Part shown: positions 437-53,451 of the stretch, piece by piece
Position numbering within the stretch: position 1 is the stretch's first letter
Layout of the letters: every line of letters begins with the position of its first letter
Source of the DNA: Octopus sinensis
Lineage: Eukaryota
Direction of reading: 5' to 3'
Length of the DNA: 64,000 nucleotides
NCBI RefSeq assembly: GCF_006345805.1
Contig: NC_043011.1
Span: 14,458,464-14,522,463 of the forward strand
Position numbers and translations under genes: made by a program
Notes under the pieces: generated by a model
What the model was told of the DNA's origin: nothing
What the model saw: only the letters and a program-made list of their open reading frames with translations
Databases searched by the model: none

Positions 437-738
437 ATATATATATATATATATATATAATTTCAACAATTGAGGGCAAAATTAATTAATTATTAATCAA
501 TTTCACCAAGTGTTCAGTATGCAAAGGGACCATTCAAGGCGAATTCAAATTATTACATTATATAAAAGGGCTTAGTAAAATAAATTACTTTGCCGCATAC
601 TGAACTCATTAGAAATAGCAGCCAAAAAACTTTTTTAAGGCTATTTCTAATACTTAAAGAAAATCTCTCTCATATATAGTGTTTGCATAATTTAACTCAC
701 AAAAGTTTGGGGGTAATGACATCGAAAAATCAAATGCT

Positions 739-809
739 AAGGTTATTCGAGAACGTACGTTTCAAGATTAGTCAAAACAACATTTCTATCATCGGCTCGG
801 AAATTCCTT
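739..809 (-). ncRNA. Type I hammerhead ribozyme motif (first of 9 minus-strand copies, period ~546)
   Basis: Minus strand reads aagg-aattuc-CGAG CCGAUGA uAGA..17 nt..UCUu GAAA CGUACG UU CUCG-aauaa-ccuu. Stem I CGAG/CUCG plus AAGG/CCUU; palindromic stem III; GUU cleavage triplet. Core has U4C and stem II is weak. Confidence 0.65.
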
Positions 810-3800
810 GGTTTGGATTTGGAAACACTGAAAATAAGAACATACCCTCTCGAAGATCTGCTCCCAACTAACAGTGTCAACAAATTCAAAATAAGCAAGC
901 GAAGAATCTCTGTTCTCCCCTTTCCACCAGCGTGGGTTAAAATCATCAAACTCTATGCTTATTTCGGTAAAGTCCGAAGCATTAATCAGAGGGAGATTAA
1001 TTATAATTTCAACAATTGAGGGCAAAATTAATTAATTATTAATCAATTTCACCAAGTGTTCAGTATGCAAAGGGACCATTCAAGGCGAATTCAAATTATT
1101 ACATTATATAAAAGGGCTTAGTAAAATAAATTACTTTGCCGCATACTGAACTCATTAGAAATAGCAGCCAAAAAACTTTTTTAAGGCTATTTCTAATACT
1201 TAAAGAAAATCTCTCTCATATATAGTGTTTGCATAATTTAACTCACAAAAGTTTGGGGGTAATGACATCGAAAAATCAAATGCTAAGGTTATTCGAGAAC
1301 GTACGTTTCAAGATTAGTCAAAACAACATTTCTATCATCGGCTCGGAAATTCCTTGGTTTGGATTTGGAAACACTGAAAATAAGAACATACCCTCTCGAA
1401 GATCTGCTCCCAACTAACAGTGTCAACAAATTCAAAATAAGCAAGCGAAGAATCTCTGTTCTCCCCTTTCCACCAGCGTGGGTTAAAATCATCAAACTCT
1501 ATGCTTATTTCGGTAAAGTCCGAAGCATTAATCAGAGGGAGATTAATTATAATTTCAACAATTGAGGGCAAAATTAATTAATTATTAATCAATTTCACCA
1601 AGTGTTCAGTATGCAAAGGGACCATTCAAGGCGAATTCAAATTATTACATTATATAAAAGGGCTTAGTAAAATAAATTACTTTGCCGCATACTGAACTCA
1701 TTAGAAATAGCAGCCAAAAAACTTTTTTAAGGCTATTTCTAATACTTAAAGAAAATCTCTCTCATATATAGTGTTTGCATAATTTAACTCACAAAAGTTT
1801 GGGGGTAATGACATCGAAAAATCAAATGCTAAGGTTATTCGAGAACGTACGTTTCAAGATTAGTCAAAACAACATTTCTATCATCGGCTCGGAAATTCCT
1901 TGGTTTGGATTTGGAAACACTGAAAATAAGAACATACCCTCTCGAAGATCTGCTCCCAACTAACAGTGTCAACAAATTCAAAATAAGCAAGCGAAGAATC
2001 TCTGTTCTCCCCTTTCCACCAGCGTGGGTTAAAATCATCAAACTCTATGCTTATTTCGGTAAAGTCCGAAGCATTAATCAGAGGGAGATTAATTATAATT
2101 TCAACAATTGAGGGCAAAATTAATTAATTATTAATCAATTTCACCAAGTGTTCAGTATGCAAAGGGACCATTCAAGGCGAATTCAAATTATTACATTATA
2201 TAAAAGGGCTTAGTAAAATAAATTACTTTGCCGCATACTGAACTCATTAGAAATAGCAGCCAAAAACTTTTTTAAGGCTATTTCTAATACTTAAAGAAAA
2301 TCTCTCTCATATATAGTGTTTGCATAATTTAACTCACAAAAGTTTGGGGGTAATGACATCGAAAAATCAAATGCTAAGGTTATTCGAGAACGTACGTTTC
2401 AAGATTAGTCAAAACAACATTTCTATCATCGGCTCGGAAATTCCTTGGTTTGGATTTGGAAACACTGAAAATAAGAACATACCCTCTCGAAGATCTGCTC
2501 CCAACTAACAGTGTCAACAAATTCAAAATAAGCAAGCGAAGAATCTCTGTTCTCCCCTTTCCACCAGCGTGGGTTAAAATCATCAAACTCTATGCTTATT
2601 TCGGTAAAGTCCGAAGCATTAATCAGAGGGAGATTAATTATAATTTCAACAATTGAGGGCAAAATTAATTAATTATTAATCAATTTCACCAAGTGTTCAG
2701 TATGCAAAGGGACCATTCAAGGCGAATTCAAATTATTACATTATATAAAAGGGCTTAGTAAAATAAATTACTTTGCCGCATACTGAACTCATTAGAAATA
2801 GCAGCCAAAAAACTTTTTTAAGGCTATTTCTAATACTTAAAGAAAATCTCTCTCATATATAGTGTTTGCATAATTTAACTCACAAAAGTTTGGGGGTAAT
2901 GACATCGAAAAATCAAATGCTAAGGTTATTCGAGAACGTACGTTTCAAGATTAGTCAAAACAACATTTCTATCATCGGCTCGGAAATTCCTTGGTTTGGA
3001 TTTGGAAACACTGAAAATAAGAACATACCCTCTCGAAGATCTGCTCCCAACTAACAGTGTCAACAAATTCAAAATAAGCAAGCGAAGAATCTCTGTTCTC
3101 CCCTTTCCACCAGCGTGGGTTAAAATCATCAAACTCTATGCTTATTTCGGTAAAGTCCGAAGCATTAATCAGAGGGAGATTAATTATAATTTCAACAATT
3201 GAGGGCAAAATTAATTAATTATTAATCAATTTCACCAAGTGTTCAGTATGCAAAGGGACCATTCAAGGCGAATTCAAATTATTAAATTATATAAAAGGGC
3301 TTAGTAAAATAAATTACTTTGCCGCATACTGAACTCATTAGAAATAGCAGCCAAAAAACTTTTTTAAGGCTATTTCTAATACTTAAAGAAAATCTCTCTC
3401 ATATATAGTGTTTGCATAATTTAACTCACAAAAGTTTGGGGGTAATGACATCGAAAAATCAAATGCTAAGGTTATTCGAGAACGTACGTTTCAAGATTAG
3501 TCAAAACAACATTTCTATCATCGGCTCGGAAATTCCTTGGTTTGGATTTGGAAACACTGAAAATAAGAACATACCCTCTCGAAGATCTGCTCCCAACTAA
3601 CAGTGTCAACAAATTCAAAATAAGCAAGCGAAGAATCTCTGTTCTCCCCTTTCCACCAGCGTGGGTTAAAATCATCAAACTCTATGCTTATTTCGGTAAA
3701 GTCCGAAGCATTAATCAGAGGGAGATTAATTATAATTTCAACAATTGAGGGCAAAATTAATTAATTATTAATCAATTTCACCAAGTGTTCAGTATGCAAA

Positions 3801-5523
3801 GGGACCATTCAAGGCGAATTCAAATTATTACATTATATAAAAGGGCTTAGTAAAATAAATTACTTTGCCGCATACTGAACTCATTAGAAATAGCAGCCAA
3901 AAACTTTTTTAAGGCTATTTCTAATACTTAAAGAAAATCTCTCTCATATATAGTGTTTGCATAATTTAACTCACAAAAGTTTGGGGGTAATGACATCGAA
4001 AAATCAAATGCTAAGGTTATTCGAGAACGTACGTTTCAAGATTAGTCAAAACAACATTTCTATCATCGGCTCGGAAATTCCTTGGTTTGGATTTGGAAAC
4101 ACTGAAAATAAGAACATACCCTCTCGAAGATCTGCTCCCAACTAACAGTGTCAACAAATTCAAAATAAGCAAGCGAAGAATCTCTGTTCTCCCCTTTCCA
4201 CCAGCGTGGGTTAAAATCATCAAACTCTATGCTTATTTCGGTAAAGTCCGAAGCATTAATCAGAGGGAGATTAATTATAATTTCAACAATTGAGGGCAAA
4301 ATTAATTAATTATTAATCAATTTCACCAAGTGTTCAGTATGCAAAGGGACCATTCAAGGCGAATTCAAATTATTACATTATATAAAAGGGCTTAGTAAAA
4401 TAAATTACTTTGCCGCATACTGAACTCATTAGAAATAGCAGCCAAAAAACTTTTTTAAGGCTATTTCTAATACTTAAAGAAAATCTCTCTCATATATAGT
4501 GTTTGCATAATTTAACTCACAAAAGTTTGGGGGTAATGACATCGAAAAATCAAATGCTAAGGTTATTCGAGAACGTACGTTTCAAGATTAGTCAAAACAA
4601 CATTTCTATCATCGGCTCGGAAATTCCTTGGTTGGATTTGGAAACACTGAAAATAAGAACATACCCTCTCGAAGATCTGCTCCCAACTAACAGTGTCAAC
4701 AAATTCAAAATAAGCAAGCGAAGAATCTCTGTTCTCCCCTTTCCACCAGCGTGGGTTAAAATCATCAAACTCTATGCTTATTTCGGTAAAGTCCGAAGCA
4801 TTAATCAGAGGGAGATTAATTATAATTTCAACAATTGAGGGCAAAATTAATTAATTATTAATCAATTTCACCAAGTGTTCAGTATGCAAAGGGACCATTC
4901 AAGGCGAATTCAAATTATTACATTATATAAAAGGGCTTAGTAAAATAAATTACTTTGCCGCATACTGAACTCATTAGAAATAGCAGCCAAAAAACTTTTT
5001 TAAGGCTATTTCTAATACTTAAAGAAAATCTCTCTCATATATAGTGTTTGCATAATTTAACTCACAAAAGTTTGGGGGTAATGACATCGAAAAATCAAAT
5101 GCTAAGGTTATTCGAGAACGTACGTTTCAAGATTAGTCAAAACAACATTTCTATCATCGGCTCGGAAATTCCTTGGTTTGGATTTGGAAACACTGAAAAT
5201 AAGAACATACCCTCTCGAAGATCTGCTCCCAACTAACAGTGTCAACAAATTCAAAATAAGCAAGCGAAGAATCTCTGTTCTCCCCTTTCCACCAGCGTGG
5301 GTTAAAATCATCAAACTCTATGCTTATTTCGGTAAAGTCCGAAGCATTAATCAGAGGGAGATTAATTATAATTTCAACAATTGAGGGCAAAATTAATTAA
5401 TTATTAATCAATTTCACCAAGTGTTCAGTATGCAAAGGGACCATTGAATTTGTTGACACTGTTAGTTGGGAGCAGATCTTCGAGAGGGTATGTTCTTATT
5501 TTCAGTGTTTCCAAATCCAAACC

Positions 5524-5594
5524 AAGGAATTTCCGAGCCGATGATAGAAATGTTGTTTTGACTAATCTTGAAACGTACGTTCTCGAATAACCTT
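5524..5594 (+). ncRNA. Type I hammerhead ribozyme motif in the inverted partial unit
   Basis: cgag ccgatga taga...tctt gaaa cgtacg tt ctcg, read directly on +. Confidence 0.65.
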
Positions 5595-5776
5595 AGCATT
5601 TGATTTTTCGATGTCATTACCCCCAAACTTTTGTGAGTTAAATTATGCAAACACTATATATGAGAGAGATTTTCTTTAAGTATTAGAAATAGCCTTAAAA
5701 AAGTTTTTTGGCTGCTATTTCTAATGAGTTCAGTATGCGGCAAAGTAATTTATTTTACTAAGCCCTTTTATATAAT

Positions 5777-5943
<167 letters not shown>

Positions 5944-8069: not shown

Positions 8070-8517
8070 GGATCTTTTCGGTTTGACCGGCAGTTTTTAA
8101 CATAATTTCTCGGTAACTAAACACTTTTAAACTTCGTATACTGGTAGAATGTGTTTATAAAACATCTTTTTCTCTTGGCCTTATTGAGAAAATTCTATAG
8201 TTTGTAAGATATTTGTTGTTTTTTTTCTTCAATTTCTGCAATTTCAACCAATCAATGACGTCTATTGAGGTGAAAACATTCTGTGCCGTATGAATATGTC
8301 CCTCGTTTAAGAAACAGATTGGGCTTATTTACATTTGTGACGAAAAAAAGATACCCTTCCCCTAACCCCTAACCCTAACCCTAACTAACCCTAACTGACT
8401 CTAACCCTAACCCTAAAACAGATTGAAATGCAATAGATCGATACTAGGGTCATAATTATGGGTGACAATTTCATATGACATCGCTAGAAAAAACTACCGT
8501 TCAAACCGAAAAGATCC
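8070..8517. mobile_element. MITE-like element with ~28-bp TIRs and internal (CCCTAA)n telomere-like tract
   Basis: TIRs ggatcttttcggtttgaccggcagttttt / aaaaactaccgttcaaaccgaaaagatcc. ccctaa repeats at ~8360-8416. Related copy at 51283-51674. Confidence 0.8.
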
Positions 8518-9298: not shown

Positions 9299-9379
9299 TG
9301 TTTAATGGGCTGAGCATTCTAAATTCATTGTTCTGTAATTTACAGAACAATGAATTTAGAATGCTCAGCCCATTAAACA
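9299..9379. repeat. Perfect palindrome: 40-bp arms, 1-nt spacer
   Basis: tgtttaatgggctgagcattctaaattcattgttctgtaa-t-ttacagaacaatgaatttagaatgctcagcccattaaaca. Confidence 0.95.
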
Positions 9380-13360: not shown

Positions 13361-13379
13361 CACATATAATATATATATA

Positions 13380-13820
13380 TATATTAAACTATGGTTGCAG
13401 AACAAACAAATATAAGGTCATCCACGTAACATTTCATATCTCGAATATTTAATCACATAATGCTTTTTCTTTCATATAGGTTATACATACACAAAATCAC
13501 GGAAGATGAAACCCAACCCATCAATACAAGCATATAAGAAAAATATAAGAAAAATGTGTGAATACAGTCCATCGCGGTTAAAAGTTAATGATAAATACTT
13601 TAGCGACTAAAAAAAAAATATATTTTTTAACATTACAACATCAAGAATAATAAATACATTATGTGATTAAATGTTCGAGATATGAAATGTTATGTGGATG
13701 ACCTTATATTTGTTTTTTTCTGCAGCCACAGTTTAATATATTTGTCTCATTTAATTGAGCACTTCTATAGCAGTCCTATTAAACATTTTGTTCCTGATAA
13801 GAAACAATCACTGTATTATG
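13380..13820. mobile_element. PLE-like element: ~80-bp inverted repeat (13380-13462 / 13657-13741) plus ~80-nt tail, between TA tracts
   Basis: atattaaactatggttgcag..aatcacataatg is the reverse complement of cattatgtgatt..ctgcagccacagtttaatat. Confidence 0.65.
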
Positions 13821-14024: not shown

Positions 14025-14294
14025 TTTATCCCACTCTGCTCATCAGTGGGCCATACACAGATAGTACACAATTACACACACACACACACACACAAACATA
14101 TATATATATATATATGGATATATATATGTATATATATATGTATATAAAAATAAATATAAGAGAGTGGTCACTATGTGGCTCACTCTAGCACTAGTAAATC
14201 CAGAAGGTTTCAACCACAAAAATACATGTTTCCCATGAAAGTCAGTACGATTGTTAGCTCACACGAACAGGGCAAATAAAAAATAACAAAAATA

Positions 14295-14390
14295 CAGATT
14301 ATTTTGGGACAATTGTTTCGCTATTAATGAATTAAAAGTAATTTTACTCACAAAAAAACTCACTTGTAGCTCCTCAGCCAAAACTATCTG
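14295..14390 (-). ncRNA. Type I hammerhead ribozyme (inverted copy)
   Basis: Reverse complement of 15270-15365. Confidence 0.85.
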
Positions 14391-14733
14391 GATGAAATCC
14401 ACTCAATCACACGCCAGATTTTACCATAACGATAAATACACGTGTGGTTCAATTGATTACATCCGACGTTATAATTCAAATGCCCCTACCAACAGCGCGC
14501 CAAACTTTCACGGAAACAAATACTACATTTAGAAATAAATGTAGCATAATTATAATTAATTAATAAGGGTGAGAGAATTAGATACTAATTTAATAGTATA
14601 TCTATTCAACACCAAGTGGCCCAGTGCCCCGAGAAACCTGGATTATTATATTTTATAATATATTATAATATTTTATACAAAAATAAATATAAGAGAGTGG
14701 TCACTATGTGGCTCACTCTAGCACTAGTAAATC

Positions 14734-14829
14734 CAGATAGTTTTGGCTGAGGAGCTACAAGTGAGTTTTTTTGTGAGTAAAATTACATTTAATTCATTAA
14801 TAGCGAAACAATTGTCCCAAAATAATCTG
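14734..14829 (+). ncRNA. Type I hammerhead ribozyme
   Basis: cagat-ag-UUUUGG CUGAGGA GCUA..long loop..UAGC GAAA CAAUUG UC CCAAAA-ua-aucug. Canonical core; GUC cleavage after 14816. Confidence 0.85.
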
Positions 14830-15269
14830 TATTTTTGTTATTTTTTATTTGCCCTGTTCGTGTGAGCTAACAATCGTACTGAATTTCATGGGAAACATGT
14901 ATTTTTGTGGTTGAAACCTTTTGGATTTACTAGTGCTAGAGTGAGCCACATAGTGACCACTCTCTTATATTTATTTTTGTATAAAATATTATAATATATT
15001 ATAAAATATTATAATAATCCAGGTTTCTCGGGGCACTGGGCCACTTGGTGTTGAATAGATATACTATTAAATTAGTATCTAATTCTCTCACCCTTATTAA
15101 TTAATTATAATTATGCTACATTTATTTCTAAATGTAGTATTTGTTTCCGTGAAAGTTTGGCGCGCTGTTGGTAGGGGCATTTGAATTATAACGTCGGATG
15201 TAATCAATTGAACCACACGTGTATTTATCGTTATGGTAAAATCTGGCGTGTGATTGAGTGGATTTCATC

Positions 15270-15365
15270 CAGATAGTTTTGGCTGAGGAGCTACAAGTGA
15301 GTTTTTTTGTGAGTAAAATTACTTTTAATTCATTAATAGCGAAACAATTGTCCCAAAATAATCTG
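15270..15365 (+). ncRNA. Type I hammerhead ribozyme
   Basis: Same motif as 14734-14829. GUC cleavage after 15352, 536 nt downstream. Confidence 0.85.
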
Positions 15366-15649
15366 TATTTTTGTTATTTTTTATTTGCCCTGTTCGTGTG
15401 AGCTAACAATCGTACTGACTTTCATGGGAAACATGTATTTTTGTGGTTGAAACCTTTTGGATTTACTAGTGCTAGAGTGAGCCACATAGTGACCACTCTC
15501 TATTATTTATTTTTGTATAAAATATTATAATATATTATAAAATATTATAATAATCCAGGTTTCTCGGGGCACTGGGCCACTTGGTGTTGAATAGATATAC
15601 TATTAAATTAGTATCTAATTCTCTCACCCTTATTAATTAATTATATATG

Positions 15650-15680
<31 letters not shown>

Positions 15681-18239
15681 GTATATATATATATACAACA
15701 TACGAATATTTGCATATACGTACGTATACACGACCAGTTTATTTGCCCGTCTAAACTACCCGTGCTATAATGTCAAAATACCACTGTGAATATAATGACG
15801 AAGTAAATTTATAAATTTTTATATAATTAAGGATCTCTAGCATGTCTGCTAATTTAAATCTTTAAAAGTGTTTCCAGTAAAGAATAGCATAGTATTTCAT
15901 ATCTGTATGTAGAGCTGTATCTCTTTATGCTTCATCAGTAAATCCACCGAACGAAACAGGCTCCAGTAAGTGGTTATATGGTTTCTACTCTACTCCGTTT
16001 TGTCTCTTATTTGATTAGTCCACTTGTCTTTCGACTTGAATAATTTCCTCGCCTTGTAACTTTAGTGTGAAAAGAACCGAGGGTCAAGTTTAAATTACTG
16101 AAGACAGAGAAAAGATATGAAACATTTTTCTTATGAAAACCATTTAATTATGCTAATAAAAGTTATTGGATTATATTGAATCCAAGAATATTTAATGATT
16201 ATTTTGGATTCACTGTAATGTAGCAATGTTTTTTTAAAAAATCAAACAGCATTGAAGAATGTGGTCGAATAATATAAACAAATACTAAAAAGACATTCTC
16301 CCCTATAATTACGCTTAGAAGGAATATGCACAACTATTTACCAAAATGTGAGTGTCCTTTGCGTGTACAATATTTGAAAGAGAAATCTTCCTTGAAATCC
16401 ACAGAGCATATTCAGGGCAAATGTCTTCGGTAATTATAAACAGCAAACAAATGTTGTTCAATAGTTAATGTCAGTTTGGGATAACAATTTCATGTGAAAT
16501 GAGAATATAAAACTAAAGAGAAAGTGAGAACTGGTAAGCTGTCCGACAATAATTCATTCGTACAACTCCAGGTTCTGAATTAAAAAAAAAAAAAACACCA
16601 CTTAATAAAGGGTACTCAAACTGCACAAAAAGGAGATGTGACGACTGGCTACAAGGTTGTGCAGTGTGTGACCTTGATTGATAGATAGATTTCCCAGTGT
16701 TGGTACCAAATTCCAGGTTTTATACAGGATGTGTTTGCATCAAAATGGTTGCTCTACACGAGAGCAAAATTACATGAGTGTACCTATTCATACGTATGAA
16801 GACATTAGAGCAGGAGATAGACCAAAGTTTGTGCTTGTTTAGTTTTGCTAGTTTTCTTGGGCATTACTATTATTGGGACAAGTCATATCAATATTCATGT
16901 CCCATTTCGTTTATTATTCGCTACAACAAAGTTTGACGCACATAATATCAAAATTTGCAATAATATATCTTTTGGTCGCCAGTATGATTCCTCTATCCAA
17001 TTTGGTTTTACATCACACGGCATGGTTTTCAATCATCTTTCTTATTTGCCGAAAGTACAGGTAGGATCATTGATTACTTTGCCAAATCCTGTAAACATGA
17101 TAATTTGCAGTATATATTTTGCATTTAGACAGAAAATTACTGAATTGTTTCTTTCTTTTCTTTGAATAAGTGTGATATCATTTTTATTCCACTTCATTTT
17201 TTTATTCGCTCTTGCTTCTCTCATTTGCTTCTAAATGCTTATAACAGAATAAGTTTTCCTACATTTTTACTTACAGCATAACAACCCATATCTGCTTTGA
17301 TTTCAATACGTTTTTTTTTGCAGCTTTTTGTCAAATTCCTTTCCATTTTTATTCATGTATCATTAACTCTTTCTCCTAATCATGTCGATTTCTTCATTAC
17401 TAAATTTAAATTCTTCTCATATGGTAATCAATATAACTATTTTTCTTTCAACTAATCAATATTCTCTCTCTCGCTCTATCTCTTTTCTATGGAATACAAA
17501 TTCTAAATTTTCTTATGATATATAAAGTCTTATATTGCATTTTTGTTTTTAATCTTAATGTTTAAAGACGTCTGCTCCCTTTTAGCTGCTTTAAGCAATC
17601 TTTTACTAATTGCTTCTCAAGTGAGCAGATCTTTCTGAAGATTCTTATAAAGCTTTCATTCAACCTGCAGTCGAGATGTGGTTCCGTTCTTGATTTAATT
17701 CTATGAATCGTTCCAGTAAGTGAAACTATTTTCATCATATTCCACTTCAGCCAGAACTTCCATTTGGAAAAAATCCTCAAGATTTCTTAAAACATGTCGT
17801 TTTTTTAAGGGTCCACTGTACCAAGCACTATCCAGTACGATCTAAAACACTTCTATCAAAAATGTAATTCCAACCCCCATGATCCCTCAGCGTCAGCGTA
17901 AATATATTTTCTAGATTAGTCTGTAGTTTATAATTTTTGATTGACGACAGGGACAGACAGACAGACATAATGCTGTCCAACTTGACATGACGTCCATTGC
18001 AAAGTGTACTGGTTTTCAAGTAGAGCTTATTGCATGAAAGTAACTATTTAAATGCTACTGAAATTTGGATCATCATTTTATAACTCTCTCACTAATCGTA
18101 AGATCTCTCACTGTTGAAGTTTCTCTTGCAACTTCTCTAATTCTTTGGCCATTCAAAGCGATACTGGTGACGTTACTTTTATCTCCATTGGTTTCAAGCC
18201 AGTAACATTCATTTTTATCGTACAAATCTCTTTCATTCC

Positions 18240-19109: not shown

Positions 19110-19942
19110 ATGCTAATTTCCCTTTCCAGAGCCCAAGGAGGTCGTGGTTTGATTCAGTTTGAACATTCTTACAAAACCACCACAACTGGACTGGCTAAAT
19201 ATCTTGAACCAACTAACGGCGAGATGCTAAAACTAGTTGAAAATCATGAGAGGCGTAAGAAGATTTATTCTATCCTGAACGGGAGCAAAAGATTTGCTAC
19301 TGATTTTGTGGATGATACCCAGACTAAACTGCCCGAGGGAGTGTGACAACTGCTGCTGCAAAAGAAGTATAATTAATGGCAAGATAAAAGCGTATGAATA
19401 ATTGGCTGGTCGGTGGGAACAGAAACCTCTGCATGGCAAATATGTGGCAAACAAGCTGATGTTGACCAAAAGCACGTGCATCAGTAGCCAAGAAGCTCAG
19501 AGGTAAAAGCAGGTATCGAAGGTTTCATTGTAACTGTTCAAGATCAAAGCTTATTGACTCGGAACTATCAAGCCAATGTGATGAAAAATGGAGTAGATCT
19601 AAAGTGCTGATTCTGCAGTGATGAGATCGAAACAGTGGACCACTTAATCTCTAGATGTAATTTTAGCTCAAGTAGAGTATAAATTAAGACATGACAAAGT
19701 TGGTCAATATATACACTGGTTAATATGTCGGCATTATAAAATCAAAACTGCTGATAAATAGTATATGCACCACCCTGAGATTGAAACTGAGGGAGAAAAT
19801 GTAACTATCCTTTGGGAATTCGGTATATTGATAAACTGGATATTGTTGTAAAAGACCAAAATAATAAGGTCTATTAATTGATCGATATGAGTATCCCCCG
19901 TGACCGTAATATTTTGGCAATAGAATTTGACAAGCTTACAAA
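19110..19942 (+). pseudogene. Decayed R4/Dong LINE 3' coding fragment (post-RT region, CCHC, REL endonuclease)
   Basis: SRAQGGRGLIQFEHSYKTTTTGLAKYLE... is collinear with the C-terminal third of the 29736-33425 ORF, with stops and frameshifts. Confidence 0.9.
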
Positions 19943-20197
19943 AAAGTTGCTGCAGTGATGTCCATTTTATTTTTCCCAAGTTCTTGGTAGAATTCTTTTG
20001 GGGTTGGAATTGAACTGTTTGTTTTGTTTAAAGAAACGTTCGACGTTTCTCATACCGGCGGATCCTTTGTGCTTTGGCAAGGATATCTTGCTTTAGCTTT
20101 TCTTTTACCTCAGGTAAATCTTTTTCAGTAATGTTGTATTTGTACAGTGTTTTTGCTTTCTTCTTGCTACTTTGTAGTGTTGATTGTCTACTAATTT

Positions 20198-20408
20198 CGG
20201 CGAGCTGGCAGAATCATTAGCACGCCACGCAAAATGCTTAGCGTCATTTCGTCCGTCTTTGCGTTCTGAGCTCAAATACCGCCAAGGTCGACTTTGCTAT
20301 TCCTCTTTTCGGGGTCGATAAAATAAGTATCAGTTAAGCACTTGTGTCAATCTAATCGACTAGTCCATTCCCCCAAGTGTCAACCCTTGTACATATATTA
20401 GAAAGAAT
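20198..20408 (+). mobile_element. tRNA-derived SINE with Meta/MESC-like central domain
   Basis: ggcgagctggcagaa head followed by gtcgactttgc..ttcggggtcgataaaataagta. Confidence 0.8.
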
Positions 20409-21449
20409 TTTTTTTTATTGTTGCTTTTGTGTTGTTGTCGGCGATGTTAGCAGATAGATTTCGGAGGTTTTGACTCAGTTTTTAAACCTTATCTGTTAAG
20501 TTCGTGTTGAAATATTATATAATTTTTGTTTTATTAGACTATGGATACATTATTCAAAAGAATAGCTTTGCTGGCATTCATATTTTCCTTCCGCCAGTAC
20601 CTTACGTTCTTCGAAGAAGAATTTCTTTTACTAGCTGGGAGGAATTCTGCCGAACTGGTCTTGAAAACCTTTTCTAGGAAATGACTGTCGTCAGAACTAA
20701 TTCAATCAAGAAGAAAACTATGTCCTTGAGTTTTCCCAATCCTTAGCATTATAAATAGACTAAAACTGCCCAACCAAACGTAGGGTTGCTGTGCAGAGAC
20801 TTATGTTATGAGTTAATTTTACAACATCTCCTCTGTTGTAGATAGTCACGCTAATTATGTCGTAATATCTTGTATATTTTATATAACGAATCAGATCATC
20901 ATTATTAATATGCATCGACATTGTTAAGTTTAGATTGGAGTCTAGATCAGTCGTCACCTTGGTATCATAATTATAGCAATTACAACTTTATTCTCCTTTT
21001 CGTGCTCTCCCTTCCTCCATCTCTTACTCACACTCTCCCTCCTCTTGCACTCACTCTCCCTCCCACTTCTTCTCTATCGTTGCATTCTTCCTACTCTATC
21101 TGGCTAATATTACTCATGTCAGCATAAGGAAGAAAATCAATCCTGCTATCATACTAGTAGATTATATAATAAGAATTTTAATTATGACTCATACTGCTGA
21201 ATGTAAGAATTGTATTATAGATAAGACAGTTTGGCTTCTTCAAAAATATTTTATAGCTTCTTAAGATAATATTGCTGATAATGGCTGGTTTTGAAATTTA
21301 CAAAATAAAAAAAGAAAAGAAAGAAAGAAAGAATTGCGTTGTGTTGCTGTGATCCATTTCTGTAATTCATTATTGATTCCACTGGAGTGGAGCCGTTTTA
21401 TTATTCAAATTAATCAACTATAGATTGACTACTTGTATCTGAGAAGTAA

Positions 21450-23560
21450 TGGTTGTTTCTGATTAAAGCAAAGGATCAACAATTTTAAAAGGAGGGATTT
21501 AATCGACCTCACTGATCCCAGTACTTGACTAGTACGATATTATCAAGATCTCGGAGGATTGAAAAGTTAAGGTGACTTCGGCGGGATTTTATACCCAGGA
21601 CGCAAAATGCCCGAATAGATACATACCGAAGCACATATTTTCTTACGTAAGGCGGCGATCTGGCAGAAACGTTAGCACGTCGGGCGAAATGCGTAGCCGT
21701 ATTTCGTCTGCCTTTACGTTCTGAGTTCAAATTCCGCCGAGGTCGACTTTGCCATTAATCTTTGCGGGGTCGATAATTAAGTACCAGTTACGCACTGGGG
21801 TCGATGTAATCGACTTAATCCCCTTGTCTGTCCTTCTTTGTCCCCTCTATGTTTAGCCCCTTGTGGGCAATAAAGAAATACATATTTTCTTACGTTCTGC
21901 TGACTCCATCAGCCCACAACCATTAATAGAGAAATAGTTGGTTCTGATTTAGGCAGAAGGCCAGAAATTTTGAGGGGGAGAAGTTAATCGGTACAGTTCG
22001 CACCAGTTCTTGACTAGTTTTTTTTATTTTATCGACCCCAAAGAATGAAAGGTAAAGTTGATCTCGATGAGATTTGAAACTACAATGTAAAGAGCCGGAC
22101 GAAATGCCACAAAGCATTTTGCCCGGCGTTCTAATCATTCTGCCAACCCATCGACCTTTTTTTTTCTGAGGGGAAAAACGATTTTCGAACTAACAAATTG
22201 ACTACAAATTGCAACTTTTAGATAAAAACGTATTGATAAACGTATCGTTCCGCCATACTTAGCAGAATGATATGTTAAGACATTGATAAGCTAGCAACAC
22301 TGCATGAGACATGCTGAGTAAGATCTGATCTTAGCCATATGGATGTAGGCATTGCTCACTATCTTTAATGTTATCATTATTACTAAGGCAGTAAAGGCGG
22401 TGAGCTGGCAGAATTGGTAGCATTCCAGGCGAAATGCTTAGCGGCATTTCGTCTGTCTTCACATTCTGAGTTCAAATTCCACCGAGGTCGACTTTGCCTT
22501 TCATCCTTTGGGGGTCGATCAAATAAGTACAAGTTGTGTACTGGGATCGATAACAACCGACTATCCCACTCCCCACAATTCCAGGCTTCCAGCCTGTTGC
22601 AGAAAGCATTATTTTTAAGGCAGCGAGCTGGCAGAATCGTTAACCCGCCGGAAAAATTGCTTAGCGCTATTTCGTCCGTCATTAGGTTCTGATTACAAAT
22701 TCCGGCGAGTTGACTTTGCCTTTCATCATTTCGGGGTTGATAAAATAAGTAGCAGTTGAACACTAGGGTCGATGAATTGAACTTACGCTCTTCCCAGAAA
22801 TTGCCGCTTTGTGCTAAAATTTGAAACCATTATTATATAAATATAATTCACTAATACAAAGATTATTTTTGTTTTCAAATCCCAAACTCTGTATATCTCT
22901 ATATAGATTATATTGGATAAATTCTCCATTTTTTAAAGAGATATTATTTGTCACAATAGTTACTTCGACCAGGAAGGTTTCTTCACAATATCCGGTCGAA
23001 CTGTTTTGGTCAATTTGTCTATGTGCAGAAACAGCTCACCCAAAACGGTCACTTTGTCATTGTCTGCGACCGTCTTGGCGTATGTTTATACCACCTCTCC
23101 TGTTGATATTTCATGGCACTGGTATAATACGCATTATATAATAAGGGCGGCGAGCTGGCAGAAACGTTAGCACGCCGGGCGAAATGCTTCGCGGTATTTC
23201 ATCTGCCGCTACGTTCTGAGTTCAAATTCCCCCGAGGTCGACTTTGCCTTTCATCCTTTCGGGGTCGATTAAATAAGTACCAGTTACGCACTGGGGTCGA
23301 TATAATCGACTTAATCCGTTTGTCTGTCTTTGTTTGTTCTCTCTGTGTTTAGCCCCTTGTGGGTAGTAAAGAAACAGGTATTTCGTCTGCCGTTACGTTC
23401 TGAGTTCAAATTCCGCCGAGGTCGACTTTGCCTTTCATCCTTTCGGGATCGATTAAATAAGTACCAGTTACGCACTGGGGTCGATATAATCGACTTAATC
23501 CGTTTGTCTGTCTTTGTTTGTCCTCTCTGTGTTTAGCCCCTTGTGGGTAGTAAAGAAATT
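21450..23560. mobile_element. Cluster of Meta/MESC-domain SINEs (21649-21879 +, ~21940-22155 -, ~22395-22605 +, ~22617-22830 +, 23143-23560 + with internal duplication)
   Basis: Repeated gcctttcatcctttcggggtcgat motif. TSDs acatattttcttacgt (21633-21648 / 21880-21895) and tggtataa.acgcatt.tata (23120-23140 / 23560-23580). Confidence 0.85.
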
Positions 23561-24304
23561 GGTATAAAACGCATTCTATAGAAGTTCTAATTATGTTTTG
23601 TTTGTACGTGTGTTCTCTGCTTATATATTCTCTCAATCTAGAATATCATTATATATTATCCTGTTTACTTTTGGTATTCAGCTGTTTTAATCTTTAAATC
23701 AGGTGGAGAACCTATACGCCAAGGAAACCGGGAAAACGACCTTTATGAGATAGGCATGGCTCGAGAAGGAACAAACAACAAACCTAGGTAATTAAGTATT
23801 CGTAAGATTATTACATGATGATGTAAAGATAGTTGTATTCTCATCATGGTTGTTATATTCACAATGTTTCAGATGTATTTATCGCTCTTCTTCAAGTGTC
23901 TCGTCGCATTTGGTGATATATACCCAGAATTTTGAACGGAAACATTTCTTAAAACCAAAGGGCAGAATGTCCTCAATTCGTTGGCCATACTTGAGGTATT
24001 CTCGTTTATTTGTGATACCATGTGCTCGAACCTGACTCGCGTATTCAATCTATATGTATTCTAGTTGATGCGAAATGATCAAGCGGTATCAAAAGTACGA
24101 GAATAACAATACGAAAATATTTCGCTATGGATAACCAAACGAAAACAATTCACCCCGGTAGACTGAAAGAAATTTTTCATTCAAATTCTGAAAATATCAT
24201 TGAATACTCTATACAGGTACCTGAAGAAGGCCAGAGGGTACAACGATTGAATCATTGCGAATAAGGTGACTAAAATCAAGACACTAAGGTAAAAGTAAAG
24301 TTAC

Positions 24305-27345: not shown

Positions 27346-27472
27346 CCTCCTTCCCTTCTTTCCTGAGTCTCAGTAATACTTTAATTGTTCCACGTCCTGC
27401 GTTGCTGTGTTTTTTTTCTCTTTTTTTCTGTGTTTTCTTGTTTGGATATATATATATATATATATAATATAT

Positions 27473-27516
<44 letters not shown>

Positions 27517-27527
27517 ATATATGTATA

Positions 27528-27857
27528 TGTAAGAATATTTTGCGTAATAAGATAAAAAACCAAGGCTATGTAGATATTAGAGCATTTATAGATAGAAGGT
27601 CTTACAGCTGTTTCTAGGATATTTATTAATTATATCCCTTCATCGGAAACGGTGTGAGAGGATAGTTAAGTTATAGTTAGTTTAAATGTGATACAAAATA
27701 GAGAGTGAGGTGGAGAAAAGAAAATATATGCAAGATATGTATGGGTATTGAAGTTTTTTCAGGCATAATGGTATACATGCAAAAGTTCAAAAGTTCAACA
27801 GAGTTTAAAATGAGTTCTTCCAAATATAGAGTTTATAAGCAATATATATATATATAT

Positions 27858-27949
<92 letters not shown>

Positions 27950-28260
27950 GTAAGAATATTTTGCGTAATAAGATAAAAAACCAAGGCTATGTAGATATTA
28001 GAGCATTTATAGATAGAAGGTCTTACAGCTGTTTCTAGGATATTTATTAATTATATCCCTTCATCGGAAACGGTGTGAGAGGATAGTTAAGTTATAGTTA
28101 GTTTAAATGTGATACAAAATAGAGAGTGAGGTGGAGAAAAGAAAATATATGCAAGATATGTATGGGTATTGAAGTTTTTTCAGGCATAATGGTATACATG
28201 CAAAAGTTCAAAAGTTCAACAGAGTTTAAAATGAGTTCTTCCAAATATAGAGTTTATAAG

Positions 28261-28263
<3 letters not shown>
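27528..28263 (-). mobile_element. Two identical ~315-bp HHR-bearing units separated by (TA)n, period 421
   Basis: Duplicate ORFs at 27705 and 28126. Each unit is flanked by TA repeats. Confidence 0.8.
27599..27650 (-). ncRNA. Type I hammerhead motif (second copy at 28020-28071)
   Basis: Minus strand GUUU CCGAUGA ag GGAUAU aauuaauaa AUAUCC ua GAAA CAGCUG UA AGAC. Palindromic stem III; GUA triplet. Confidence 0.7.
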
Positions 28264-28314
<51 letters not shown>

Positions 28315-28320
<6 letters not shown>

Positions 28321-29156: not shown

Positions 29157-29180
29157 TATATATATATATATACAGTAACA

Positions 29181-29497
29181 ATAATAATCCATGAATGTAA
29201 TTTATAATGTTTTAATGCAACGCGTTTCCACATATCACATGTTACTTAGGATCATAGTCCGTATTCCTGGGATGACTACAGTCCAGTCCGTAGCATCCAT
29301 GAATATCGGGTGGATCATATTCATGCTTTCATTTCTTCAGGTGATATTACCGCATGAATATGATCCATCCGATGTCCATGGATACTACGAACTGTACCGT
29401 AATCATCCCAGGAATACGGACTATGATCTCAAAAAACATGTGATATGTGGAAACGTGCGTAGCGATGCATTGAAATATTTATAAATTACATCCATGG

Positions 29498-29505
<8 letters not shown>
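29181..29505. repeat. ~325-bp imperfect foldback palindrome with AAT/ATT ends
   Basis: Arms of ~145-150 bp pair (e.g. gatcatagtccgtattcctgggatga / tcatcccaggaatacggactatgatc) around a ~25-nt spacer near 29327-29351. Confidence 0.85.
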
Positions 29506-29555
<50 letters not shown>

Positions 29556-29556
<1 letters not shown>

Positions 29557-32500
29557 TTTTTTTTTCTTCTTTCAAATTTGCTTCCATTTCTTGCCGAGTG
29601 TCTTCCCGACTCCTAGGGCAAAGAAACTCATAGTATACATTGGTAGGCCATTAAACCAAACTCAATAGTTCGTTCATTTTTTTAATTTTTAATTTTTTTT
29701 AAAGTTAAATTAAAATACATGAGCAGCAACAGTTCTCACATCGACAATGCTCTTCTCAATACGTGTGATGTACCAGTTAAGACAATCTTTTGCACTTCTT
29801 GCAGGGATGGTAAGCCAGGGATCATTCTCATATAATTTTCGGTTCCCTTCTTGATCATTCCTAGTGCTCCTACGATCACTGGTATTGTAATCGCCTTGAG
29901 ATGCCACATTTTCTCAATTTCAATGAGTAGGTCTTTATATTTTCTGAGCTTGTCAAACTCTTTCGCTGAGATGTTATGATCACAGGGGATGCTCATATCG
30001 ATCAATAAGCAAACTTTATTGTTTTGGTCTTTCACAACAATATCTGGTTTATTGGCCTTGATGGTTCGGTCTGTATGTACTGGAAAGTCCCACAGAATGG
30101 TTACATTTTCTCCTTCAGTTACAGCCTCAGGGTGGTGATTATACCACTTGTCGGCAGTTTTGATATTGTAATGCCGACTTATTAGCCAGTGGAGATATTG
30201 GCCAACTCTGTCATGTCTTAATTTATACTCCACTGGTGCTAAGACTTTACATCCAGAGATTAGGTGGTCCACTGTTTCAATCGTGTGGTTGCAGAATCGG
30301 CATTTTGGGTCTGCTCCATTTTTCATCACATTGGCCTGGTAGTTCCGGGTTAATAGGCTTTGATCTTGAGCAGCCAGGATGAAACCTTCGCTCTCTGCTT
30401 TTAGCCCTGAGCTCCGTAGCCACTGATGGGTTTGCTTCTGGTCAACATCAGCTTGTTTGCTGCGGGTCACATATTTGCCGTGCAGAGGTTTCTCCTCCCA
30501 CCTATCAGCCAATTGCTCGTGCGCTTTTTTCGTTGCCATCATTTTCACCTTCTTTGCAACAATAGTTGCCGTACTTCCCTCGGGTTGTTCAGTTTGGGTA
30601 TCCTGCACGAGATCAATAGCAAATTTTTTGCTTTCCTTTATAATAGAATGAAGCTTCTTTCGTCTCTCGTGATTTTCCACGAGCTTTAGCATCCAGTCAT
30701 TCGATATTTCAAGATATTTGGCCAGTCCAATTGTGGTTGTTTTGTAAGCTAGTTCAAATTGGATCAGGCCTCGACCTCCTTGGGCTCTGGGAAGGTAAAG
30801 GCGATCTACGTCTGCCCTTGGGTGGTGCATCCTATTACAACTCAGCAGCTTGCGTATTTTCCTATCTATATTCTTTACTTCACTCATATTCCAGTTCAAC
30901 ACATTGTAGCTATAAGTAACAACTGGAACTGCTAAGGAATTTATAGCTAACACCTTGTTACGTGCATTTAGTTCAGATTTCAGGACTGCACGAACTCTCC
31001 TATAACATTCCGTCCTGATCTTCTCTTTCATGCTTGCATGCTGAATACCAAATCTTTCATTTATCCCTAAATATTTGTATGTTTGTTCTTGCTCAAGCTC
31101 TCTTATGACTGTGTCAACATCTAACACGACTGAATTTGTGGTCTTCACTTTCCCTTTCTGGAAGGTGGCCTTGGTACACTTCTCAAGTCCAAACTCCATC
31201 CCGATGTCATCGCTGAATGCTTTCACGGTGCGCAATAGGCCTTCAAGTTCATTATTGTCTTTATCATAAAGTTTTAAGTCATCCATATAAAATAGATGGC
31301 TTATTTTTTTATTGGCAATTTTATACCCATACCCTGTTCTGTTTAATTCACTTGTAAGTGGTATTAGGGCTATGCAGAATATTAAAGGTGAAAGTGGGTC
31401 ACCTTGAAAAATTCCACAGTTGATGTTTATATTTTCTGAGGCAAGTACTCCATTAGAGTGGTATAATTGGAGATTCGTATTCCACAACGACATATTGTGC
31501 TCTAGGAAGTTTGAAATCACAGGGGAAATTTTGAAGATGTCCAGCGATCTCAAGATCCATGGATGCGGTATACTGTCGAAGGCCTTTTTATAGTCAATCC
31601 ATGCGGTGCTGAGATTTCTGCGCTTGTTGTGACAGTTCTCAAGGATCATACGATTGATTAGCAGTTGATCTTTGCATCCGTAAGAGCCTCGGCGGCACCC
31701 TTTTTGTTCAATGGGGAAAATATCGTTCTTCTCCATGAATGCATATGTTTTCTCCGCCAGGATAGATGTTAGGATTTTATACGTGGTGGATAGACAGGTT
31801 ATAGGGCGATAATTTTTTGGAAGGTTGGTTTCGTTATTCTTTGGGAGTAGGTAAGTAATGCCACTTGCTAACCATTCAGGTGTTTTCTTTGGGTCTCTCA
31901 TAATTCCATTGAGCAGCTGAACTAGCTTTCCGTGTGCGCATGGGAGCGATGCGAGCCAGAAATTCGGCACCCTATCTTTACCGGGGGATTTCCAATTATG
32001 GGCCTTCGTGAGTGCCTTTCTTAGGTCTGCTATTGTGATGTCTTCCCATGCTTGTTGTTGTAAATTTTGGTAGGATCCTTCAGTTTGTATAATCCAGTCT
32101 GCATTTATGTTGTACGTCTTCTTGTCACTCCAAATCCTTTTCCAAAAGTTTTGAACATCTTCCATGGGAGGGGGGTCTTTAACGGTTACTTTCTCCTTCC
32201 CTATTTCTCTGTAGAATTTTTTGGCATTGGATGTGAACAGCTTATTTTGCTTGTAAAACTTGTTTCTCTTCTCAGATCTTCGTATTCTTTGGGCTTTTGC
32301 TTGGACTTTTTGTTTCAGCATTTCTTTTATTGATATCAGTTCTTCTCTTGGTGAGGATCCAAATTTTCTCTTCATCTTTCTTCCTGTTCTGGATCTTACA
32401 TCATTTCCACATATTAGTTCATTTAATATTGATATTTCCCCTCTCATAAATTCAATCTCTTTTTCAATTTTACTTCTCCAGGTTTGATTTCTTCCCAGGT

Positions 32501-34427
32501 TTTGTTTTCTTTGTTTTTTCGGGGGCATACAGCTGGTTTCAATTGCCCTAGCAGAAGCGTAAATAACTTCATTTAACTCAGTAAAATCAGGTTTTAATTC
32601 TTGTATTATTTCATTTGTTACATAGTTGCCAATTTGGATTTGTTTTTTATTTTGGTTTGTATTTGAGAGTTTATGAAGTGGTTCTCTATCATTCATACTT
32701 GTATGTCTTACAACTTCAAGCGTATTCAGGATTTTCTGCCTCATTTCTGCCATAGACTCTCTGTGTTCTTCAGCAAATGCGAGATCTTCAGTTACTGTTG
32801 TTTTTTCGTTTTCCTGGCTATCTTTAACAGGTACAATAGAATTTCTTGTATCTTCAGGCCTTTGCGTACTTTGGTCAGATGGCAGTCTTTCAATTAAGCC
32901 TCGTGGCGGGCTATACTGTTCATCTGATTCTTCATTTCCTTTGTGTCTTATATTTATGTCATTTTCCGTTGCGTGCTTGATCGCGCTTATTTCACTGTCC
33001 GTGAGTCTGTTATTTCTAAGGATATCCCTCCTCACATTTGCTAATTTGTTCTCGTCCAAATAGGGCCTACTGTCTTGATTCCGTGTTCTCCATATACTGT
33101 AAGAGTTTGCGGTGTGTCTCTCTTGAGATGGCCTACCTAATGCATAGTAATAAGCGTATATTACTTCTTTATACTCTTCTCGGGTCCATTTGTTCCGCTT
33201 ACATTTTTCTTTCTGTGGTGGTTGTGGTGGTGAACTTGGAGGGCTCGAGTTGGGGGATTTCCCGTTCAAGTGACCATCCATGTCCGTATTCGGAGAAGAG
33301 TTTGTGCCAGTTGATGACTTTTCGATCCCAGGCTGGCTCTTCCCTGGGGGACGCGCTTCCAGATTAACCATAGGACAAGCGATTTGGTATACTGATTTAG
33401 TTTTCCTTTTAGTTTCCAAAAACATTTTGGTGCTACGATAATGTTATCATTTTTTAGCTTTGATTGGCTCGTGGGGAGACGGCCATCATTGCCGTTACAA
33501 TTATAATCGTACCATTATAGCAGCCGTAGTCGGCTTATTATTGTTATTATCATCACCATTATTATCACTATCATCATTATCACCACCATCACCATCATCA
33601 TCATCATCACCATCACCATCGTCATCATCAATGATATTGTTTTATGTGTAGTCACAGCAGTATCTTATTATTGTTATTTTTTATCATCATCACCATCACA
33701 GTAGTGTCTGTCTGTCTCGTTGGCTGGCTTGTTGGTTGGCTGGCTGACTGTCTTCAACGCCAGAGTTCTTGCCTGTCAAATAATACTTTCATATTTGGTT
33801 AACAATAGAGCCGAGGTGAGGTTTTGTGTTGGTTGAAGTCTTTGAGTGTGTGTGTGTGTGTGTGTAGATAGATAGATAGATTATCAGCACTATTACTATC
33901 ATTATTATCATCATCACCATCATCACCATCACCATCAGTGATATTTTTTTATTTTTTATTTTTAATTATTTATTTTTTTTTTAGGTGGGGTCCTATCGGT
34001 CAAAAAAAGTTCAGATGTTTACTACTATTAGGCCTAAGAAAAATTAAGGAAGGGCTGTTCTGTATTGTTTGTGAATAGAGAAGTTGTGTTCGACCAGAGG
34101 GAATCTTAGCATCATCATTTTTTTTTTTCCATGTGCGTTTGTGTTATTGCAATAAAAAGTCTTTGTATATTTCGTGTAAGGTAATATTGTGGAGGTTGAA
34201 GTTGACTTTTCTAGAGATGTTTGTATATCCAGTTAGAAGAACAGGTGTGTTTTTACAATAAAAAGTATATGTTTACATTTATATTTGAATATTCAGGGAG
34301 GAAGCAAAGAAAAGTCAGATTTTCATAGAAAGTTTTAGGGTTTTGTAAGTCCACAAAAAGAAAAGCGTGATGTTTTTAGAGAGAAGAAAAAAAAGGATGT
34401 TTACAGAGGCAATTGTGGGTATCAAAG

Positions 34428-41124: not shown

Positions 41125-41500
41125 ATGGGTTTCAAATTTTAGCATGAGGCCAGCAATGTTGGTGACGTAGGGAGGTGGTTAAGTCGATTACATCGACCCC
41201 GAAAGGATGAAAGGCAAAGTCGACCTCGGCGGAATTTGAACTCATAACGTAGCGGCAGACGAAATACCTATTTCTTTATTACCCACAAGGGTCTAAACAC
41301 AGAGGGGACAAACAAGGACAGACATAGGTATTAAATCGATTACATCGACCCCAGTGCGTAACTGGTACTTAATTTATCGACCCCGAAAGGATGAAAGGCA
41401 AAGTCGACCTCGGCGGAATTTGAACTCATAACGTAGCGGCAGACGAAATACCGCTAAGCGCTTTTCCCGGCGTGCTAACAATTCTGCCAGTTCGCCACCT
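41125..41500 (-). mobile_element. Meta/MESC-domain SINE(s), duplicated or nested
   Basis: atcgaccccgaaaggatgaaaggcaaagtcgacctcggcgg occurs twice. Confidence 0.85.
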
Positions 41501-41544
41501 TACAATAGTAATAACACTGCTTTCAAATTTTGGGAAAAGGCCAT

Positions 41545-53061: not shown

Positions 53062-53277
53062 TGGGTTTCAAATTTTTCACAAGGCTAGTGACTCCGGTGG
53101 AAGGGGTAAGTCGATTACATATGCCCCAGTATTCAACTGGTACTATTTTTATGGACCCCGAAAGAGGTGAAAGATAAGGTCGTCCTCGACGGAATCTGAA
53201 CTTAGAACGTAAAGACGGATGAAATACCGCTAAGCATTTTCCCTGGCGTGCTTACGATTTTGCCAGGTTGCCGCCTC
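53062..53277 (-). mobile_element. Meta/MESC-domain SINE
   Basis: Same family motifs on the minus strand. Confidence 0.75.
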
Positions 53278-53451
53278 CTCTCCGTTTAATAATATTGCCC
53301 AATTGTTGCTCACCGTCGCTTCTCCAGTCTATATTTCTTGGACTTTTCTATAAAATCTTGGAATTACAGCGGTCTTCACTTTCTTGAACGCAGAATTCTT
53401 TTTTTTATGTATCTTCTGGTGGACACTCTATCTCGTGTGTGTGTGAACATG

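Follow-up and report, generated by a model that had tools for sequence, protein, structure and literature searches.

Non-LTR retrozymes of animals are non-coding tandem repeats that carry type I hammerhead motifs and give rise to linear as well as circular RNAs, and PLEs have been put forward as candidates for moving them (Cervera and de la Pena, 2020; PMC7229834). A recent preprint describes retrozyme units of 51–972 bp that are PLE-related and homologous to pLTRs; among nine Xenopus retrozyme dimers, one was cleaved and eight remained uncleaved in vitro (Li, Clavereau and Pollet, 2026; bioRxiv 10.64898/2026.07.22.740005). The spread of retrozymes has been argued by inference, in terms of either PLE machinery acting in trans or local tandem expansion (PMC7229834; bioRxiv 10.64898/2026.07.22.740005).

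Insertions of PLEs bear several marks, including partial tandems, an inverted 5'-truncated copy, a one-sided tail, and a bias toward TA (Craig et al., 2021; PMC8557442). The purified protein of an anole PLE cuts and extends both DNA strands and prefers AT-rich DNA, and its reverse transcription (RT) starts at two internal RNA sites, the spacing between which corresponds to the tail (Frangieh et al., 2024; PMC11167929). The ribozyme of this anole element needed the protein and was dispensable for insertion in vitro (PMC11167929). Together with the uncleaved Xenopus dimers, the protein-dependent anole ribozyme indicates that a perfect motif is no guarantee of activity.

The 536-bp repeat described here occupies positions 14146–15645 of a 64-kb window, which is the whole stretch of DNA that was analyzed. 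It is best explained as a non-LTR retrozyme, i.e., a non-autonomous PLE, that was likely inserted by a Penelope protein, with priming from both strands at two preferred sites 132 nt apart; we put the probability of this reading at roughly 75%. The tandem unit, the consecutive motifs, the multicopy nature of the family, and the lack of a long open reading frame (ORF) all speak for the original prediction of a retrozyme-like family that carries a type I hammerhead. The class is already known and the 536-bp family is new, a novelty on which the supplementary family lists of the preprint may bear. A literature search of mostly open-access work, with Repbase and Dfam outside its scope, returned no paper on this family. 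Four 10–12-mers of the unit had no match in the supplement of Craig et al. (PMC8557442), where line-wrapping can hide matches, and the match of one of two 9–10-mers to an oyster Naiad element in the same supplement was taken as chance.

The element sits between a CA/TA tract on the left and a TA tract on the right. The left flank (14073–14146) is a CA and then TA microsatellite that represents the target site, with a TA array called by TRF at 14098–14158, and the right flank (15642–15695, from a TRF-type repeat listing) is a TA microsatellite. The inverted arm (14146–14743, minus strand) is about 598 bp long (1.12 units) and 5'-truncated at the junction, and the direct arm (14731–15645, plus strand) comprises 915 bp, or 1.7 head-to-tail units of 536 bp. 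With a unit period of 536 bp, the direct copies are 99% alike (4 of 379 positions differ) and the inverted arm is 98% complementary, with one private substitution and a 3-nt deletion. The inverted-plus-tandem layout, the 536-bp period, and the TA on both sides are all as claimed in the original prediction. The TA tracts of the two flanks have similar interruptions, and a target-site duplication is not discernible, as is also the case for PLE insertions at such targets (PMC8557442). The 3' end of the inverted arm, at the position that corresponds to 15513, abuts the TA tract, such that the 132-nt stretch between the two preferred ends (15514–15645, plus strand) is present at the right end and absent at the left. 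By analogy, this stretch probably corresponds to the PLE tail, and the inverted-plus-tandem layout with its TA target, when set beside described PLE insertions, is the standard PLE signature rather than a new design.

At the inversion junction (14731–14737), five nucleotides of microhomology are certain and are found in both direct units; the full 7 nt that had been predicted are reached only with the private variant at 14203. The suggestion of template switching at this position draws support from the microhomology. Because the junction coincides with the 5' edge of stem I, the first ribozyme is just complete. At nine sites of the window, the element carries letters that are in the minority by contig depth in public run X1, and none of these sites differs between the arms; because the nine letters are common to all arms, one donor is likely. 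Assembly error as the source of the inversion or the tandem would be a highly improbable explanation. Although such structures trouble short-read assemblies (PMC8557442), and the read comparison covered the tandem joint rather than the inversion junction, the three arms carry distinct private differences, the tandem joint occurs in three independent runs, and the layout is a known biological pattern. Canonical twin priming as in L1, acting on a single linear RNA, was also considered and fits less well than the two-strand priming of PLEs, because the outer end of the left arm and the inner start of the right arm are about 290 nt apart in phase rather than adjacent.

Three type I hammerhead motifs are present in the element. 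One lies in the inverted arm (14295–14390, minus strand; core start at 14377, predicted cleavage after 14308) and two lie in the direct arm on the plus strand, namely motif 1 (14734–14829; core 14747–14753, GAAA 14805–14808, GUC 14814–14816) and motif 2 (15270–15365; core 15283–15289, GAAA 15341–15344, GUC 15350–15352). These three are the only descriptor matches in the 64-kb window under strict and relaxed settings alike. At three stringencies, 0, 2, and 0 of 100 block-shuffled windows contained any chance match, and none was found in 5000 shuffled units. The descriptor search confirms the predicted CUGAGGA/GAAA core and GUC triplet in all three motifs and their type I helix order, and the type I features G10.1-C11.1 and A15.1-U16.1 are present as well. 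In motif 2, stem II is formed by 15290–15293/15337–15340, a helix extension by 15296–15303/15327–15334, and the stem III palindrome by 15344–15351.

The helices of these motifs depart in part from the original description. Stem I had been given as 6 + 5 bp; its 5-bp part holds, and its 6-bp part is predicted to be 7 bp with an outermost G-U pair, a 1×1 mismatch lying between the two parts. Stem II consists of 4 bp and begins with G-C. In place of the proposed 43-nt loop II, the prediction gives a 2×2 internal loop followed by a helix extension of 8 bp, which is capped by a terminal loop of about 23 nt. Predicted pair probabilities for the helix II extension are 0.90–1.0, both locally and in the circular monomer, and those for the core-flanking pairs of stems I and II (seven and four pairs, respectively) are at least 0.96 in the circular monomer. 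An Rfam scan of the 64-kb window detected no hammerhead, with zero matches at the gathering score and no hammerhead among 16 weak matches (E up to 10). This is likely explained by the extended helix II, and families with a long helix II may be under-counted because the Rfam models miss this form. In metagenome contigs, two motif patterns had no matches, and neither did an exact 25-mer in viral contigs. A loose core pattern hit 47 loci in viral contigs; none of the 47 had the helices, and the hits were dismissed as chance.

Stem III is palindromic, as described originally. Within a single motif it has a predicted probability of 0.01 and could contain no more than 2 bp, closed by a palindromic loop of 4 nt, and the palindromes of two copies are predicted to pair over 8 bp (−7.8 kcal/mol). 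Short palindromic helices III that work as dimers are usual for metazoan type I motifs (Cervera and de la Pena, 2014, PMC4209133; PMC7229834; PMC3088659). For 14731–15400, the unconstrained minimum-energy fold is a double hammerhead (−178.6 kcal/mol, compared with −170.8 kcal/mol for two single ones). This fold was the best in one of four constructs that hold both direct ribozymes, and the double hammerhead is consequently a possibility rather than a result. To include both direct ribozymes, a transcript has to begin no further right than 14734. When read-through includes the inverted arm, the arm is predicted to pair with ribozyme 1 in the nascent RNA or with ribozyme 2 in the whole RNA, and in the fold of 14700–15400, which includes 31 nt of the inverted arm, ribozyme 1 is predicted to misfold. 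For these reasons, the copy at this locus is probably a poor source of monomers, with an inverted arm predicted to sequester its own ribozymes.

The predicted monomer between the two sense cleavage sites (14817–15352, plus strand; from descriptor and fold) measures exactly 536 nt by arithmetic on the predicted sites, in agreement with the original prediction. Its fold has an energy of −148 kcal/mol (z −4.97), and none of 100 shuffles was as good; with 30 shuffles per strand, the z values of the unit are −6.2 for the sense and −5.2 for the antisense strand. The whole unit, with a GC content of 0.32, is predicted to fold as one structure with long-range pairs crossing the end site, and a 12-bp hairpin (15113–15140, plus strand) is predicted directly behind the recurring 3' end site. 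Coding capacity is minimal. No sense frame of the direct arm exceeds 47 codons (stop to stop), and the longest stop-to-stop frame of the element has 81 codons, is antisense to the ribozyme, and has no Pfam match. According to the ORF list and Pfam, an ORF with RT and GIY-YIG domains joined to the repeat is absent at this locus.

Words of the unit occur in public sequencing runs, in part in 20 of 24 listed runs and by half or more in 9 of the 24. The holder runs carry five organism labels, and none of those listed is recorded as RNA. For further comparison, the monomer 15110–15645 was matched against four runs (X1, X7, X15, and X21), among which X15 has a word share below 0.5. In X1, with 76% of the run read, 3926 contigs match the monomer at 85–100% identity (1318 at ≥99%, i.e., at least 99%, 1447 at 95–99%, 1010 at 90–95%, and 151 below), and X7 and X15 have 80 and 128 matching contigs, respectively. 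Contig depth in these runs is no copy number, contigs cannot tell circle from tandem, nor strand or RNA ends, and the RNA nature of X7 and X15 is a guess only. Three of the four runs (X1, X7, and X15) contain the head-to-tail joint from 15645 to 15110, with a depth in the latter two that is equal to that of the entire first bin. Five contigs in X1 run from 15513 into TA and share this end with the inverted arm described above. The loose consensus at the 15513 end in X1 differs from the local flank with an agreement of 0.91, at which level this locus may be among the five contigs. X21 is raw DNA that bears the species label of X1; none of its 12.9 million reads spans the monomer, and the 12 partial matches are of low complexity only. 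Label mismatch, filtering, and true absence are indistinguishable as causes of this difference from X1.

Sequence variants in the runs were compared with the predicted fold. Among 20 listed substitutions, two occur only in the low-complexity X21 matches and were dropped. Of the remaining 18 variable sites, 11 fall in predicted pairs, and nine of these 11 keep the pair, all by G-U-type exchanges. Pair-breaking variants number two, compared with 6.1 expected (P 0.014), in a test that takes the fold from the window copy and uses sites related by descent. In the antisense-fold control, three variants break pairs versus 6.2 expected (P 0.06), and two of five paired sites are kept. Given that this control comes near the sense result, the strand signal is modest and not sharply strand-specific. 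In the ribozyme core, no variant was seen and 0.47 were expected, an absence that is uninformative. In the hairpin at 15113–15140, loose-end letters, read by eye among 20 of 71 loose ends, reveal one A-U to G-C change and one broken neighbor in X1 (eight contigs), and three wobble changes with eight of eight visible pairs kept in X15 (one contig). Stem I has one one-sided, G-U-compatible change, with the partner strands outside the listed sequence. In a divergent X15 contig, the 12 letters that span GAAA, stem III, and GUC are retained, and both adjoining 3' strands differ. An A-to-G change at 15357 in stem I accounts for 0.07% of the depth in X1, 3.6% in X7, and 6.8% in X15, and another at 15517 is listed in X15 alone. 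These changes could be alleles or A-to-I editing.

A second family in the same window has a comparable organization, with about 9.15 tandem units of 546 bp at 456–5448 and an inverted arm at 5444–5779 (456–5779 overall, minus strand). Its direct arm ends at the same AATTATA motif (then ATT in the unit) as the 536-bp unit, and its inverted arm ends 98 nt earlier than the direct arm. Another inverted fragment of the 546-bp family is found at 44–143; it ends at about 128 and runs into TA, using the end site of the arm at 5779. The 546-bp unit carries a hammerhead-like motif on the minus strand, with a variant core (CCGAUGA), a palindromic stem III, and a GUU triplet; the ribozyme is not formed in its minimum-energy fold. 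The predicted distance from cleavage to end is 293 nt in the 536-bp unit and 296 nt in the 546-bp unit. In phase, the global alignment of the two units beats 299 of 300 phase-fixed shuffles (z 3.1), and its score was unreached by 60 shuffles that were given the best of 21 rotations and by 110 real window segments of like GC. The last 130 nt of the units score above 1000 of 1000 shuffles, for a segment chosen after the similarity had been seen. In comparison, the local alignment is weak (17 of 300 shuffles), the ribozyme region alone is no better than shuffles (321 of 1000), and neither blastn nor nhmmer linked the two families.

The original prediction had called the two families largely unrelated. 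The local searches bear this out, whereas the global alignment and the end geometry point to common descent. In the same way, the description of the 536-bp family as independent is probably wrong, given an in-phase alignment beyond the controls and the 293- and 296-nt geometries. With no blastn or nhmmer match and a ribozyme region that does not align, common descent is likely but not proven; judged from sequence, the two families are probably distant sisters. Alternatively, the resemblance may be explained by convergence on the needs of one protein.

The two families also bear on a purely DNA-level origin, in which a satellite or fold-back was expanded by unequal crossover or replication slippage and the ribozyme is a passive relic. 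Unequal crossover has been proposed for the local expansion of retrozyme arrays (bioRxiv 10.64898/2026.07.22.740005). However, such an origin leaves unexplained why two diverged families share their two end sites, a TA target on both sides, and an inverted head, as well as why the 15513 end recurs in X1 contigs and why variants keep G-U-tolerant pairing. We consider it very unlikely.

A closer rival regards the unit as nothing more than the pLTR of a PLE that bears an ORF, with the tandem and the inversion as by-products of truncated insertion and no independent monomer RNA. In the original prediction, retrozyme and pLTR were set against each other as alternatives, a division that the literature does not sustain, since there they appear as opposite ends of a single kind. 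The layout agrees exactly with that of PLE insertions (PMC8557442), and the pLTRs of Xenopus are homologous to retrozymes (bioRxiv 10.64898/2026.07.22.740005). In addition, the survey of ORF-bearing copies was limited to the 64-kb window and the contigs, for which 20 of the 71 loose ends and 24 of the 4169 pieces were visible. Nevertheless, unit follows unit without an ORF in between, and the 546-bp sister does likewise for about nine units. In X7 and X15, the whole first-bin depth is carried by the head-to-tail joint, and the one long loose end listed at the unit end (X15, 15642) reads as a unit-start variant. Furthermore, the single predicted structure of the whole unit has long-range pairs across the end site, and no sense ORF of more than 47 codons follows the ribozyme. 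On this evidence, the pLTR explanation appears unlikely.

The retrozyme reading suggests a mechanism in several steps. Tandem donors would be transcribed into multimeric RNA, in which neighboring ribozymes may pair through the palindromic stem III to form a double hammerhead that cuts out unit-length RNA, and a host ligase may close this RNA into circles. A PLE endonuclease/RT made elsewhere would then nick both strands of a TA tract, and reverse transcription would start inside the RNA at 15645 or 15513, 132 nt apart, one start per nick. The two cDNAs would run toward the 5' end and be joined head to head through the 5–7 nt of microhomology, and a single event of this kind could give both the inverted arm and the partial tandem. 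The donors would be plain tandems rather than the copy at this locus.

Both arms cross intact cleavage sites, suggesting that the template was either an uncut multimer or a re-ligated circle. Copying from a ligated 536-nt circle by rolling-circle RT, a variant of the same retrozyme reading, is a real though lesser possibility. It would suit the fact that both arms exceed one unit and share nine minority letters, and that nine 546-bp units each lie within one letter of the reference unit; moreover, circles have been shown for the retrozymes of coral, mussel, and axolotl (PMC7229834). Among eight 546-bp units compared with that reference, four differ, by one letter each, and three of these differences are 1-nt deletions. 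On the other hand, one circle would yield identical passes, whereas the direct copies have their 4 differences in 379 positions and the left arm has private changes, and uncut RNA is the main in vitro substrate of the anole PLE (PMC11167929). Between the two templates, the uncut multimer is slightly favored.

No autonomous partner was found within the 64-kb window. By analogy, a full hammerhead and a TA target would fit Hydra or Neptune elements better than Naiad elements; Neptune has a microsatellite bias, and Naiad is described as being without canonical hammerhead motifs (PMC8557442). A more ambitious joint reading of the two families, which we offer tentatively and regard as rather doubtful, is that these diverged sisters keep a fixed RNA geometry, that their insertions record double-strand priming on a ribozyme-made circle, and that the double hammerhead is obligate. 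The geometry would place cleavage 293–296 nt before the main RT start and a second start about 100–130 nt earlier on the other strand, with a hairpin right behind the main start and loop 2 replaced by a long helix. If true, these loci would be a direct genomic record of animal retrozyme movement.

The window contains other repeats and mobile-element remnants. An uninterrupted frame of about 1234 codons at 29736–33443 (minus strand) matches RVT_1 (E 8e-30) and weakly zf-RVT, with no GIY-YIG match, and has 1538 relatives, mostly unnamed proteins, the best of which is 71% identical; judged from its sequence, it is apparently a young non-LTR retrotransposon. This frame has a diverged copy (78%) at 19117–19943, and a similar-looking frame lies at 63505–63924. 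C2H2 zinc-finger fragments with a weak RVT_1 match at 37386–38560 (minus strand) are probably a decayed non-LTR element. The Pfam comparison covered 16 of the 77 window ORFs of at least 100 codons together with the 81-codon unit frame, and found RVT_1 in two and GIY-YIG in none. A degenerate CCCTAA telomere-like tract is located at 8360–8416, and a 421-bp direct duplication (97%) with TA tracts at its bounds is located at 27447–28315, where the scans gave no hammerhead match. In addition, a dispersed repeat of 170–310 bp, SINE-like by size, has many copies at 70–96% identity (20198–23565, 41179–41503, 45984–47711, 53053–53279, and 61938–62149), and ARAGORN detected no tRNA in it or elsewhere in the 64-kb window. 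Small inverted repeats and palindromes occur at 13379–13741 (85-bp arms at 93%), 9299–9379 (an 81-bp near-perfect palindrome), and 29176–29510 (a 335-bp imperfect palindrome).

Taken together, the 536-bp locus holds up as a real and well-formed element whose features are for the most part accounted for; its helix II is unusual, and it preserves a clear record of its insertion. The 536-bp family alone is a modest addition, and its value lies in being a test case for how retrozymes spread. An ORF-less hammerhead unit with the full PLE signature, found twice in one window with matching geometry, supports mobilization in trans, and exact sites can be named for cleavage and priming (15352, 15513, and 15645).

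Compared with the systems described so far, the 536-bp unit resembles non-LTR retrozymes in being a multicopy, non-coding tandem of less than 50% GC in which each unit has a single type I hammerhead, and in its short palindromic helix III and highly self-paired predicted RNA. It also has two consecutive complete motifs, which is what the preprint asks of a putatively active element (bioRxiv 10.64898/2026.07.22.740005). A plant LTR retrozyme was ruled out, since the motif is type I in head-to-tail units rather than type III in LTRs. The unit length of 536 bp exceeds the 170–400 nt given by Cervera and de la Pena (2020; PMC7229834) and falls inside the 51–972 bp of the preprint. Unlike in described retrozymes, loop 1 is predicted to be a 1×1 mismatch and loop 2 an internal loop with an 8-bp extension, and the usual contact between the loops is not evident in this model. 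The inverted head and the two fixed ends are not among the features given in the accessible sections of the retrozyme papers (PMC7229834; bioRxiv 10.64898/2026.07.22.740005). Furthermore, whereas expressed retrozymes have been reported (PMC7229834), the 536-bp family is known from DNA and contig sequence. By description, newt satellite 2 and the axolotl retrozymes are also close; these share a weak palindromic helix III and are more active as dimers, and HHR_Amex2 has a similar 2-bp helix III with a tetraloop, but their units measure 330–350 bp and their loops 1 and 2 are canonical (PMC7229834).

Compared with PLEs, the 536-bp locus has no RT or GIY-YIG ORF. Its 3' end follows the cleavage site at a distance of 293 nt, in contrast to about 85–92 nt in the anole element (111–118 minus 26; PMC11167929), and the one-end extension measures 132 nt here and 98 nt in the 546-bp sister, compared with the 30–40-bp tail of PLEs (PMC8557442). 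Among PLEs, the MRC1 element of the Chlamys group likewise forms ORF-less, multicopy head-to-tail insertions, with a PLE acting in trans, as would be the case here; MRC1 differs in being green-algal, and Chlamys elements are mostly without canonical hammerheads (PMC8557442). The locus matches the insertions of endonuclease-bearing PLEs (Craig et al., 2021; PMC8557442) in its partial tandem, inverted 5'-truncated copy at the 5' side, one-end extension, TA microsatellite target, and hammerhead upstream of the 3' insertion end.
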